A DNA stretch of 64,000 nt, taken from an uncultured archaeon. Its GTDB lineage: Archaea; Asgardarchaeota; Lokiarchaeia; Sigyniarchaeales; SOKP01. The notes under the pieces are model-generated. The model ran no database searches and was not told the origin of the DNA. It saw only the letters and a list, made by a program, of their open reading frames with translations. Position 1 is the first letter of the stretch. Each line of letters opens with the position of its first letter. The position numbers and the translations under genes are program-made. Shown piece by piece: positions 9,511 to 21,444 of this stretch. The stretch lies in the NCBI GenBank assembly GCA_964486045.1, contig CAZALK010000009.1, forward strand, positions 137,309 to 201,308, read 5' to 3'.

Positions 9511-10167
9511 ATGGTAAGACACCGTTTACCTAGATTTCCATTTGATTATATTAATGACAAGGCTGATGAATATAATAATTCAAGATGGATGGAGCGTAAT
9601 CAAAAGAGAGCTACTATGTTAAGCATCCAATATCTTTTTGATGAAAAATTAGATAATAGTGAAGTGGATGGGATACAAATGGAAGATTCATCACTAATTT
9701 TAGAGTTAGGGTGTGGGACGGGTTTTTCTTCCGAGGTCTTAATTGAAAATGGTTTTATTGTAATAGGCGTAGATATTTTACCTGATATGTTATTAAAAGC
9801 AAGAGAAAAGAAGAAAGATATGAAATTTGAAAAATCATTATTATTAATTTTAGCTGATATTAATTATCTACCGATTAGAGCAAATGTTATTGATCATATC
9901 ATTTCGATCTCCTCCTATAACTTTATTATCCATGGAAATAAGAATTTTGGTGAAAAAATTAAGCTTCTCAATAATACAGCAAAATATTTAGGCAAAATTT
10001 TGAAGAAGGAGGGGAGAACAATCATTGAATTTTATCCTATAGATGATCAAGAATTAACTATTTTTAATAATTCATTTACTAAAAATGGGTTTGAAGGATT
10101 CATGGTGAAAAGCAACCCAAAACAAAAATCTGGTCAAACCTTTTTGCTATTAAAGAAAAGAGTATAA
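9511..10167 (+). CDS. Class I SAM methyltransferase, Bud23/WBSCR22-like
   Basis: LELGCGTGFS motif I, GVDILPDML, DHIISIS; N- and C-terminal segments resemble Bud23. Confidence 0.8.
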   Translation: MVRHRLPRFPFDYINDKADEYNNSRWMERNQKRATMLSIQYLFDEKLDNSEVDGIQMEDSSLILELGCGTGFSSEVLIENGFIVIGVDILPDMLLKAREKKKDMKFEKSLLLILADINYLPIRANVIDHIISISSYNFIIHGNKNFGEKIKLLNNTAKYLGKILKKEGRTIIEFYPIDDQELTIFNNSFTKNGFEGFMVKSNPKQKSGQTFLLLKKRV

Positions 10168-10169
10168 AA

Positions 10170-11312
10170 ATGGGAACCTGTAAGTTTTGTGGGGAAAAAG
10201 ATAGTGCAATATCTGAGATCCTTCAAGTGTGCAGAAAATGTGTTTTGGAAGGAGATTGGACCAAAGTAAAGCCACATATTTATACAGTTCATGAGCAAGT
10301 GAGAAAACTTGTAGAATTACCTAAAGAACCACCAAAAGCACAAAAACCGTATATAAAGTTAAAATGCAATTATTGTATAAATGAATGTTCCCTCTCTCAA
10401 AATGATGTAAGTTATTGTGGATTAAGGAATATCCACAGAGAGAAAACTGGTGATTTACCTTTTCCATCTAAATCTAAAGGATATATTCATGGTTATATTG
10501 ATCCAAATCCAACAAACTGTTGTAATGCCTGGTTTTGCCCAGCAGGGTCATCAGTTGGATTTCCGGAATATTCAGATTATGAAGACCCTGAGTTTGGGAC
10601 ATATAGTTATGCTGCATTTTTGTATGGTTGTACCTTTAATTGTTTATTCTGCCAGAATTCCTCTCATAAACATTTTTCAAAAAGAAATCTATTTAACGCT
10701 GAAATGCTCGCAAATCAGATTGTTAATAATAAGGATATCACATGCATCTGCTACTTTGGTGGTACCCCAGAAGCTCAGCTGCCTTTTTCAATTAATTTAT
10801 CTAACAAAATACTAGAAAAAATTAAACAAGAAAAGAAAAAACGTAAATTTCGAGTATGCTTCGAATGGAATGGTTCAGGAAACAGAAATTTAATTGAAAA
10901 ATGCATGCAAATTGCTATTAATTCAGGAGGAAATATTAAATTTGATTTAAAGACATTCCATGAAAAATTAAATCTTGCTTTATGTGGAGTAAGTAATAAA
11001 CGAACCCTTGATAATTTTAAATTTCTAGCTGAAAACTATTTTGGAACGAGAGGTCAAGATATGCCAGAGATGAGTGCTTGCACCCTATTAGTCCCGGGAT
11101 ATACTACCTATGAAGAAGTTGAGTTAATTGCGAAATTCATCAGTTCTATTAATAAAAATATTCCTTATAGCTTATTAATATTCCACGGAGATTATCAAAT
11201 GAGAGATTTAAGAGTTACAGCTCGAGAGCAGGCTTTAAAATGTTTGGAAGTTGCAAAAAAATATCTAAAAAGAGTAAATTTAGGAAATAAATTCTTATTG
11301 GGAATAGCTTAA
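10170..11312 (+). CDS. Radical SAM protein, PFL-activating-enzyme/AmmeMemoRadiSam-like
   Basis: GCTFNCLFCQN (CxxxCxxC), YFGGTP, FDLK, TLLVPGY and N-terminal Cys clusters. Confidence 0.88.
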   Translation: MGTCKFCGEKDSAISEILQVCRKCVLEGDWTKVKPHIYTVHEQVRKLVELPKEPPKAQKPYIKLKCNYCINECSLSQNDVSYCGLRNIHREKTGDLPFPSKSKGYIHGYIDPNPTNCCNAWFCPAGSSVGFPEYSDYEDPEFGTYSYAAFLYGCTFNCLFCQNSSHKHFSKRNLFNAEMLANQIVNNKDITCICYFGGTPEAQLPFSINLSNKILEKIKQEKKKRKFRVCFEWNGSGNRNLIEKCMQIAINSGGNIKFDLKTFHEKLNLALCGVSNKRTLDNFKFLAENYFGTRGQDMPEMSACTLLVPGYTTYEEVELIAKFISSINKNIPYSLLIFHGDYQMRDLRVTAREQALKCLEVAKKYLKRVNLGNKFLLGIA

Positions 11313-11413: not shown

Positions 11414-11762
11414 GTGAGTAAAAAAATACAAAAAGCTAGAATAAGGCTTTCTTCTACTCAATTAGACGCACTTAAGTCGGTATGCGGACAAATTGAGTCT
11501 GTGTGCAAAACACTTTCAAACCTCTTGTTAGTGGTGCGACTCACAGGGTATTAGAAAGAACGGACCTATTCCTCTTCCCACAAAAAGATTACGTGTGCCA
11601 ATATTAAAAGCGCCCTCTGGACAAGGAACTGCTACCTGGGCAAAATTTGAGATGCGTATTCATAAACGTCTTTTTGAAATAATTGCTAATGAAAGAAGCA
11701 TGCATCTCATTATGAAGATTCAAATTCCCGAGTCAGTGCTTGTAGAAATTGAACTAATGTAA
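11414..11762 (+). CDS. rpsJ: 30S ribosomal protein uS10, interrupted by a 31-nt insertion (absent from ORF track)
   Basis: First frame: QKARIRLSSTQLDALKSVCGQIESVC; second frame: GIRKNGPIPLPTKRLRVP...GTATWAKFEMRIHKRL...VEIELM*. Removing 31 nt near 11506-11536 joins them into 105 aa. Confidence 0.93.
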
Positions 11763-11766
11763 ATGT

Positions 11767-12525
11767 TTATAAATCATCTATTTTAATCTGAACCGGATCT
11801 TTCGGTAATTTTGCTTTCTCATTAATTTCGATATTATCGACATAGTAAATAGTGCCAAGAACTTCCGTATTTTTACCAATTGTTACATCTCTGCCTTTAA
11901 TATCACCTTCAACATGCGCCCTCCCAATGTTTACAATGTTTTTAGCGAAAACACTCCCGTGGATTATATAATGTTGCTTTTTTCTTATAGTTTCTGAAGC
12001 TCCAATTAGGATATCTTCAGCAACGACATTTCCTTCTATATGTGTTTTCCCTTCTATTCTAATCTTTTTTTCAGAAGATAAGTTTCCGTTAACATTTGAA
12101 GAACCAGAAAAGGTTACACCTTGTTCTCCTCTCACAAAATGTCCTGCTTTGAAAGAACCAGATGCAATTAAAGAACCTTGGATATTAACAAGATTACCTA
12201 TTTGCGTTGAACCAGAAAAATCCGCATTTTCATCTCCATAAAGAAATCCAGCAATATTAAAAGAACCCGAGCTACTTACATCTCCATGCGCGTTTATATT
12301 ACCTGATCCTTTTAAAGATCCTGATGAAGTAAGCCCATTACATTCCAAATCCCCATTAATTCGACCTGAACCTGAAACTCGTATGGATTTATTTATTTTT
12401 CCACCCGAGATTTTTGCTGAGCCAGATACGCTTATATGTTCTTCATATTCTTTTAGGCTCCCTGAGCTACTGATTATTGCTCTTTTCTCATTTTGCTTTA
12501 CAGATTCACCCTCTTTTTTTTCCAT
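11767..12525 (-). CDS. Polymer-forming cytoskeletal (bactofilin-like) beta-helix protein
   Basis: Repeated (V/I)SGS-x-x-I-x-G-(N/D)-(L/V) units. Confidence 0.8.
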   Translation of the reverse strand: MEKKEGESVKQNEKRAIISSSGSLKEYEEHISVSGSAKISGGKINKSIRVSGSGRINGDLECNGLTSSGSLKGSGNINAHGDVSSSGSFNIAGFLYGDENADFSGSTQIGNLVNIQGSLIASGSFKAGHFVRGEQGVTFSGSSNVNGNLSSEKKIRIEGKTHIEGNVVAEDILIGASETIRKKQHYIIHGSVFAKNIVNIGRAHVEGDIKGRDVTIGKNTEVLGTIYYVDNIEINEKAKLPKDPVQIKIDDL

Positions 12526-12710
12526 TTTTAATCACAACTAATAGAATTGATATACAGTAATATAAAATCAAGTTTAATAAAACATTTACTTATTTCTTTA
12601 TTCTAGAAGAAAACTTGAGTTTAATTAATCAGATTTAAATCAATATATAATTATAATTCTATTAGTTAATTAGAAGCTTACTTAACAAAATAAAACGAGA
12701 ATGTATTGTA

Positions 12711-20340: not shown

Positions 20341-21444
20341 ATGTCAGAAAAAATCGTATATGTTGATGCAAAAACTCTTGAAAATTTCATGAGAGATGTT
20401 TTCATTGGACTTGAGGTGCCATACGAAGATGCAAAAATAATAGCTGAAGTTCTAATAACTTCTGATTTACGCGGAATTGATTCTCATGGTATTCAGCGAT
20501 GTAAAATGTACTATGACAGGATTAAGGCTGGTATTTATGAAGTAATTACGAAGATTGATATTATTAAAGAGGGGCCGACTACAGCTATATTGGATGGAAA
20601 CTGCGGAATGGGGCACGTTATTGCCTATAAAGCAATGAAACTAGCAATAGATAAAGCAAAAAAATATGGTCTTGGAGCTGTAGCTGTACGTAACGGTTCT
20701 CATTTTGGTATTGCAGGGTACTATTCCTTAATGGCAATTAAAGAGGGTATGATTGGTTTAGCTGTAACAAATGCACGACCTTCTATTCCTCCAACTTTTG
20801 GTGTAGAGCCAATGTTAGGTACCAATCCATTGACAATCGGGGCTCCTACAGACGAGATGTTTCCATTCCTATTAGATGCAGCAACTTCAATCATTCAACG
20901 AGGTAAAGTTGAAGTATATGAAAGAATTAATAAAAATCTCCCCAAAAACACTGTTATTGACGAGAAAGGTGAATTCCTTACAGATGCGGGGAAAGTGTTA
21001 CAAAAAATGGGTGAAAAAAAAGCTGCTTTGCTACCTTTAGGGGGAAAAGGGGAAGATACTGCAGGGTATAAAGGTTATGGGTATGCGACCGTTGTCGAAT
21101 TATTATCTGCTGCTTTACAAAATGGAATTTTTTTGAGAGACACTATTGGTATTGTTGAGAATGGTCAAAAAAGGTTAAAAGTTGGACATTTCTTTTTAGC
21201 AATTAATATTGAAAGCTTCAACGGGCTTGATTCATTTAAGAAAACCGCAGGAAGCATTATGAAAGATTTAAGAGAATCTCCAAAGGAACCAGGAGCAAAG
21301 AAAATATATACAGCAGGAGAAAAGGAGTATATGATAGAAGAAGAAAGGAAAAAAACCGGGATCCCACTTAATAAGAGTTTGCAACAAGATATAAAAACAA
21401 TGAAAGAAGAACTCGGGTTAGATAATTATACTTTTAACTTTTAA
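20341..21444 (+). CDS. Ldh_2 family oxidoreductase (malate/L-lactate/sulfolactate dehydrogenase-like)
   Basis: DLRGIDSHG, HFGIAGYY, GTNPL, GYKGYG and GHFFLAI. Confidence 0.92.
   Translation: MSEKIVYVDAKTLENFMRDVFIGLEVPYEDAKIIAEVLITSDLRGIDSHGIQRCKMYYDRIKAGIYEVITKIDIIKEGPTTAILDGNCGMGHVIAYKAMKLAIDKAKKYGLGAVAVRNGSHFGIAGYYSLMAIKEGMIGLAVTNARPSIPPTFGVEPMLGTNPLTIGAPTDEMFPFLLDAATSIIQRGKVEVYERINKNLPKNTVIDEKGEFLTDAGKVLQKMGEKKAALLPLGGKGEDTAGYKGYGYATVVELLSAALQNGIFLRDTIGIVENGQKRLKVGHFFLAINIESFNGLDSFKKTAGSIMKDLRESPKEPGAKKIYTAGEKEYMIEEERKKTGIPLNKSLQQDIKTMKEELGLDNYTFNF

Follow-up and report, generated by a model that had tools for sequence, protein, structure and literature searches.

A bulge-helix-bulge fold at a 31-nt insert suggests mRNA splicing of the single-copy uS10 gene in an Asgard archaeon

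In eukaryotes, the XBP1 (26 nt) and HAC1 mRNAs are spliced by IRE1 and RtcB. The intron that we propose here for the gene of ribosomal protein uS10 (rpsJ) in an Asgard archaeon resembles these two in being a short, frame-changing mRNA intron that would be removed without a spliceosome and closed by RtcB-type ligation, whereas XBP1 and HAC1 differ in their endonuclease, IRE1, in their twin 7-nt loops and in forming a regulated stress switch, uS10 giving no sign of regulation. Among archaeal systems, the cbf5 pre-mRNA of Crenarchaeota contains a bulge-helix-bulge (BHB) intron (Watanabe 2002; Yoshinari 2006; Yokobori 2009, PMC2738675). Like the uS10 intron, it is short, lies inside a coding sequence and is patchily distributed among relatives, indicating gain and loss; it is removed by a broad-specificity hetero-oligomeric splicing endonuclease, and an enzyme of the same type is proposed for uS10. 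Unlike cbf5, uS10 is an essential ribosomal protein, its lineage is Asgard and not TACK, its 31-nt intron shifts the reading frame, and it is accompanied in the genome by introns in adk (adenylate kinase), rpoA' (RNA polymerase A') and PurM-like genes. A second archaeal mRNA, HVO_1309 of Haloferax volcanii, carries in its 5' UTR a BHB that is processed by EndA in vivo and in vitro (PMC7714728). Both this mRNA and that of uS10 hold a BHB, the HVO_1309 intron being located in the leader, where the frame is independent of splicing. Furthermore, Asgard tRNA genes are heavily interrupted, and non-canonical introns have been reported from archaeal pre-tRNAs (bioRxiv 10.64898/2026.10.13.758758; PMC5829648). 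Pre-tRNA introns share with that of uS10 the hBHBh' geometry, the cut rule, the enzymes, a size of tens of nucleotides and the contribution of half of the motif by exon sequence; unlike in a pre-tRNA, a ribosome reaching the uS10 intron first would make a 46-aa fragment. In the literature searched, BHB introns are not described from Asgard coding genes, the mRNA cases being the cbf5 coding sequence in Crenarchaeota and the Haloferax 5' UTR. In its mechanism the uS10 intron would belong with that of cbf5; its novelty lies in the gene that hosts it, in its lineage, in a length that shifts the frame and in the other core-gene introns alongside it.

The window analysed is a 64,000-nt stretch of contig CAZALK010000009.1 from a metagenome-assembled genome (MAG; GCA_964486045.1, Lokiarchaeia) that is 99% complete with 7.8% contamination. 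Inspection of its open reading frames places the N-terminal part of uS10 in a frame that runs from TTG 11411 or GTG 11414 to TAG 11552-54, and the C-terminal part in a frame shifted by +1 that opens at 11532 and stops at TAA 11760-62, the two overlapping by 20 nt (11532-11551). The PF00338 match in the window is limited to the second part (exon 2 in Table 1). By PF00338 profile search, uS10 is single-copy in the 5.18-Mb genome, which contains no second credible copy, the next match having an E value of 0.15 and an internal stop. With the sole uS10 gene interrupted by a candidate 31-nt intron, the uS10 protein would be possible only if the mRNA is spliced. Read unspliced, the mRNA runs to the stop at TAG 11552-54 and gives a 46-aa peptide; a protein search with this N-terminal frame returned as its sole match an intact uS10 fragment of a relative.

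Uninterrupted uS10 genes are the rule in the order. A uS10 match was obtained in 129 of its 154 genomes, and in 128 of these it covers profile positions 1-98 in one piece, the present genome being the only one with a split gene. DNA alignment with 19 uS10 genes of the same genus leaves one gap of exactly 31 nt. At the break site, the closest uS10 proteins (94-96% identical) have QIESVCKSQGIRKNG, which gives ...TGY AAA^TCA CAR... as the ancestral junction (the caret marks the junction here and below). In five genomes of the genus no uS10 was found by the family model or by a relative's protein; the gene is missing from these assemblies, with the possible exception of G012 (99% complete), whose searched sequence was short of 341 bases, roughly what a uS10 gene with its intron would occupy. 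A sequence-only reading of the window had anticipated much of this. It had described the halves of uS10 as intact and in different frames, uS10 as normally single-copy, the insert as 31 nt long and the protein as regaining its 105 aa on removal of the insert, and all of these points held (the normal length being recovered by a cut at 11510-11540); the sequence features that it had pointed out, namely GTGC copies at 11503-06 and 11534-37, complementarity between TGAGTC (11494-99) and GACTCA (11538-43) and a CACT/AGTG helix within the insert, are likewise present. As a separate observation, the uS10 gene of G096, one of the 128 genomes with a one-piece match and a member of another genus of the same family, has a different, in-frame insert of 30 nt with three stops between ...TWAK and YEMRIH.

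The unconstrained minimum free energy (MFE) structure of positions 11490-11555 (66 nt, -15.4 kcal/mol) is a BHB fold, with pair probabilities of 0.82-0.92 in this context. It has the hBHBh' layout known from introns of archaea (PMC5829648; bioRxiv 10.64898/2026.10.13.758758), having a 4-bp central helix, 3-nt bulges on opposite strands and both outer and inner helices (Table 1). A departure from the strict motif is G11534, which stays unpaired where the inner helix meets the central one and makes the 5' bulge formally a 3x1 internal loop. A cut after the second nucleotide of each bulge excises 11510-11540, exactly 31 nt, and joins AAA to TCA. The predicted product, QIESVCK^SQGIRKNG, is letter-for-letter that of the closest intron-less relatives, and the predicted junction of the spliced mRNA is ...GTGTGCAAA^TCACAGGGT.... 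Over both strands of the whole genome, a motif of this quality has a background frequency of 3.9e-6 per position at L=31, and a lenient version one of 5.3e-5; with several registers allowed, chance occurrence of the uS10 motif is unlikely. Moreover, on the antisense strand A.C mismatches would replace the G.U pairs 11498/11547 and 11504/11538, and the fold is therefore specific to the sense strand. In contexts of 101-251 nt, an upstream hairpin (11480-89/11497-506) is more stable than the BHB-constrained fold by 4-6 kcal/mol, and the BHB pair probability is at most 0.013.

Table 1. Positions of the uS10 exons, of the candidate intron and its fold, and of further candidate introns. L039 is the copy in a sister species.
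Feature	Position	Strand	Evidence or description
uS10 exon 1, codons 1-32 to ...QIESVCK	11414..11509	+	Colinear with residues 1-32 of relatives' intact uS10; start GTG 11414 or TTG 11411
Candidate 31-nt BHB intron	11510..11540	+	Single 31-nt gap in alignment with 19 relatives; cut rule for BHBs applied to fold; L039 intron identical at 28/31 nt
uS10 exon 2, SQGIRKNGPIPLP...EIELM + TAA	11541..11762	+	PF00338 positions 22-98, 68.5 bits
Outer exon helix h, 5' strand UCUGUG	11498..11503	+	Pairs with 11542-11547; 6/6 pairs identical in window and L039
Outer exon helix h, 3' strand CACAGG	11542..11547	+	Pairs with 11498-11503
Central helix H, 5' strand UGCA (exon 1)	11504..11507	+	4 bp with 11535-11538
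Central helix H, 3' strand UGCG (intron 3' end)	11535..11538	+	Pairs with 11504-11507
5' bulge AAA	11508..11510	+	Predicted cut after 11509 by published BHB rule (PMC5829648; bioRxiv 10.64898/2026.10.13.758758)
3' bulge ACU (L039: AAU)	11539..11541	+	Predicted cut after 11540
Inner intron hairpin h'	11511..11533	+	CACU 11511-14 / AGUG 11530-33, plus CAA 11517-19 / UUG 11525-27
adk insert	G000:C5 reverse-complement coordinates 21245-21273	-	CUGG-AAA ... CCAG-AAA textbook BHB core, 9-bp inner hairpin, loose outer helix
RNA polymerase A' intron, 30 nt at CxGHFGH^IELA	G000:C13:44101-44130 (L044:402-431); also L048, L050, L062, L069		GGAC/GUCU, 9-bp hairpin
G096 uS10 insert	L077:367-396 (G096:C135)	-	9-10-bp inner hairpin, relaxed central helix only

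The insert is also real as DNA. A Logan contig from run X1 spans it at 261x with 0 differences over 1501 nt, and one from run X2 does so at 83x with 2 differences over ~1.5 kb. The two runs are two samples of one study, and the Logan contigs were assembled independently from the raw data; the insert is found in three independent assemblies of the two samples. The assembly chimera that the sequence-only reading had set as a check is countered by both runs, as well as by a JGI contig carrying the insert. In low-depth contigs of related organisms from two other studies the insert is absent, and the proteins read ESVCKSQG and ESVCKNQG. Further copies of the intron were not found in its own genome: the nearest approach, 16 nt matching exactly at C9:42535-42550, sits within an ordinary open frame and is therefore due to chance, and one scan of the genome contigs with the 23-nt intron core gave 0 matches. 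Derivation of the intron 3' end from a partial tandem duplication of the exon was considered and dropped, the resemblance being explained by the self-complementary central helix UGCA.

The JGI carrier, metagenome contig Ga0114920_10014133 (L039), was found by a pattern search of JGI contigs. Its flanks are 83% identical to the present genome and at most 77% identical to every other species representative of the genus, which identifies it as an unsampled sister species. Its insert has the same site and the same length of 31 nt. The uS10 exons of L039 are intact and display 18 synonymous versus 6 non-synonymous codon differences in 106 codons, with 19% third-position divergence, implying that the interrupted uS10 has been kept under purifying selection. 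An inactivating insertion in a sole essential gene would not outlast such divergence, and the insert must therefore be neutralised during expression. As to the intron itself, T to A at 11535 abolishes the terminal A-U pair of the central helix (A.A), G to A at 11538 turns the U.G pair 11504/11538 into U-A, and C to A at 11540 lies inside the 3' bulge. RNAalifold applied to both copies retains the outer helix, three central pairs, the 3' bulge and the inner hairpin. Covariation between the two copies thus comprises one one-sided pair-keeping change (U.G to U-A) and one broken pair, with no double compensatory change. As modelled, the L039 motif is of the relaxed hBH type with 3 of 4 central pairs; relaxed motifs of this type are reported to be cut by broad-specificity EndA (PMC5829648). 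The BHB cut rule leads to VCK^SQG in both species.

These data bear directly on the possibility that uS10 is broken and not rescued, either through a recent inactivating insertion in an organism that relies on another copy or strain, or as a consensus artefact. A MAG with 7.8% contamination leaves room for such a reading, the contigs are compatible with an intron-less allele present at low frequency in these samples, and no RNA run holding this sequence is listed among the public runs. We nevertheless regard a broken gene as very unlikely: the 99%-complete genome has no second uS10, the insert recurs in two samples at 261x and 83x, the second species retains it after ~19% third-position divergence with intact exons and synonymous changes far outnumbering non-synonymous ones, and a random insertion would not yield a BHB from which cutting recreates the ancestral codons.

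Among the genes of the genome are those for two EndA paralogues of ~200 aa (C7:36595-36819 and C10:137165-137410) and a full-length RtcB (C1:512216-513523). The first paralogue has as its best match chain 3p1z_B, which we take to be the splicing endonuclease of Aeropyrum pernix, and has retained Tyr, His and Lys at their positions, while the second has its best match in the M. jannaschii enzyme and has no His; judged by their sequences, the two would fit a catalytic and a structural subunit. Asgard EndA has been described as an (alpha-beta)2 type with an L1 loop conferring broad specificity (PMC5829648). ARAGORN predicted 31 tRNAs in the genome, 20 of them with putative introns; many are mis-modelled, and the prediction was not used as evidence. 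In the proposed pathway, nucleotides 11498-11507 of exon 1 in the pre-mRNA would pair with the intron 3' end and the start of exon 2. The resulting fold would consist of an outer 6-bp helix, a 4-bp central helix, two opposite 3-nt bulges and a closing intron hairpin, and a two-subunit EndA would cut each bulge between its second and third nucleotides (after 11509 and 11540). RtcB would then ligate the exons to ...GUG UGC AAA^UCA CAG GGU..., and the spliced mRNA would encode a normal 105-aa uS10. Of this pathway, the data establish a real insert that occurs in two species, a motif and a register that fit, exact restoration of the junction and the presence of genes for the enzymes, whereas the steps from cleavage and ligation to translation of the joined mRNA are inferred. 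In our judgement, the 31-nt insert is probably a BHB mRNA intron spliced by EndA and RtcB. Removal from the RNA by some other enzyme, for example another structure-specific RNase together with a ligase, would sit well with a motif that deviates by 1 nt and is relaxed in L039, the cut sites being predicted ones; it appears just as improbable as a broken gene, since the geometry fits the EndA rule to the nucleotide and the genome encodes both EndA and RtcB; for a self-splicing intron, 31 nt would be far too short.

Two explanations would act during translation. A programmed +1 frameshift in the overlap 11532-11551 would produce uS10 with a ~10-aa insertion (KTLSNLLLVV...), and the 20-nt overlap of the frames and the required +1 shift agree with it. 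No recognisable slippery or hungry-codon site is common to both copies within 11532-11554, however, and half of the overlap differs between them; at 3 positions near its end, the peptide that would be inserted is not the same in the two species (VVRL vs VEQI), despite purifying selection on the exons. Moreover, the insertion would hit the end of helix 1, a segment of invariant length in 128/128 uninterrupted uS10 genes of the order. Frameshifting is slightly less credible still than a broken gene.

Programmed translational bypassing, for which T4 gene 60 and the byps elements of Magnusiomyces are precedents, would have the ribosome take off at TGC 11504-06, skip 31 nt and land at TGC 11535-37. 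It had been put forward by the sequence-only reading as an alternative, and the window does contain two matching TGC codons at a spacing of 31 nt and a hairpin immediately before them. We know of no description of bypassing in archaea. In the sister species the landing codon is AGC instead of TGC, the codon after take-off is AAA and not a stop, and the product would read VCDSQG, whereas the residue preceding the SQG-type motif is K, N, S, A, R, H or Q in 31 relatives and D in none of them (0/31). A single BHB-register rule, on the other hand, accounts for both copies. Bypassing is the least probable of the readings considered here.

The same comparison settles the register of the motif. The sequence-only reading had favoured a TGAGTC/GACTCA stem with cuts after 11505 and 11536, and had noted that a strict BHB's central helix of 4 bp is absent. 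That register was rejected, as it lacks a central helix, has not been kept in L039 and yields VCDSQG, while the closest relatives read VCKSQG. The central helix had been missed because the wrong register was used: in the correct one, 4 nt to the right, UGCA 11504-07 pairs with UGCG 11535-38, the intron is 11510-11540 and the product reads VCK^SQG. The spliced RNA had also been likened to an anticodon loop; the positions of its stem read AGAGTC and AAATCA in L039, and with neither this stem nor the TGC pair conserved there, neither an anticodon-loop mimic nor bypassing has a basis. Of the suggested non-canonical EndA splicing, an mRNA intron of the tRNA endonuclease is supported, and the motif has turned out to be near-canonical hBHBh'.

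A BHB intron in uS10 would not stand alone in this genome. In adk, a 29-nt insert falls inside the Walker A loop, GPPGAGK^GT, and two PurM-like genes contain BHB inserts of 30 nt. Of 30 species examined, 3 (G000, G017, G045) have the RNA polymerase A' intron and 25 lack it; in G063 and G043 the site holds 65 nt, which looks like two adjacent introns. In the central helix of the 30-nt intron, an A-to-G change in the exon is compensated by a U-to-C change in the intron (A-U to G-C). Ribosomal protein uL11 has a 28-nt break between GPTGIN and IKDVV (G000:C5:238664-238691); the frame break and the continuity of the motifs are real, and the local MFE structure of the insert shows no clear BHB. The scan for other frame-breaking inserts that the sequence-only reading had proposed gave candidates in adk, RNA polymerase A' and PurM-like genes, while homology-free enrichment across the genome was not significant. 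Long ORFs were 'rescued' by 75 strict hBHBh' matches when the true cut was applied and by 69-93 with decoy cuts, and over 6,563 ORF junctions the best BHB score was no better for frame-restoring lengths than for other lengths. Such homology-free tests say little either way, being swamped by gene boundaries and spurious ORFs, and, as the enrichment is not significant, we make no claim on the number of such introns.

The distribution of the uS10 intron among close relatives points in turn to gain and loss. Over 11721-12102, an intron-less organism in run X3 is 90.8% identical to this genome, versus 80.4% for L039. A relative seemingly closer than L039 and lacking the intron requires either precise loss or transfer. 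The X3 contigs have a depth of 4x and may derive from one or several organisms. Compared with the window over 11498-11550, X3 has 7 synonymous differences within 18 nt around the junction and ~5% difference elsewhere, which may reflect replacement by a foreign intron-less allele or a weaker constraint on the half of the BHB that the exons supply. Overall, we lean somewhat towards the view that endonuclease-spliced mini-introns of 28-35 nt are a regular component of coding genes in this genus, including genes at the core of translation and transcription (uS10, RNA polymerase A' and adenylate kinase), and that they are gained and lost between close species.

On the proposed reading, an essential single-copy uS10 of an Asgard archaeon would depend on intron removal, as would other core genes of the genome. 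If this is confirmed by RNA, gene callers systematically mis-annotate such genomes and score uS10 as missing or truncated, affecting completeness estimates and marker-gene phylogenies. Furthermore, mRNA splicing by the tRNA machinery would then be a routine expression step in the closest prokaryotic relatives of eukaryotes, and intron presence or absence among near-identical lineages would provide a natural system for the study of gain and loss. Should mini-introns prove regular in the genus, many mRNAs would need to be spliced before translation or in competition with it; a conflict of this kind has been suggested to have driven the origin of the nucleus, and prokaryotes would then provide a precedent for it.

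In many archaea the uS10 gene lies beside that for EF-1alpha; the present uS10 does not adjoin an EF-1alpha gene. The gene upstream of it (10095-11312) has the appearance of a radical-SAM-like enzyme with a Cys-rich N-terminus. The convergent neighbour on the minus strand (11767-12531) encodes a protein of 254 aa with repeated ...SGS...G... units and looks bactofilin-like or polymer-forming.
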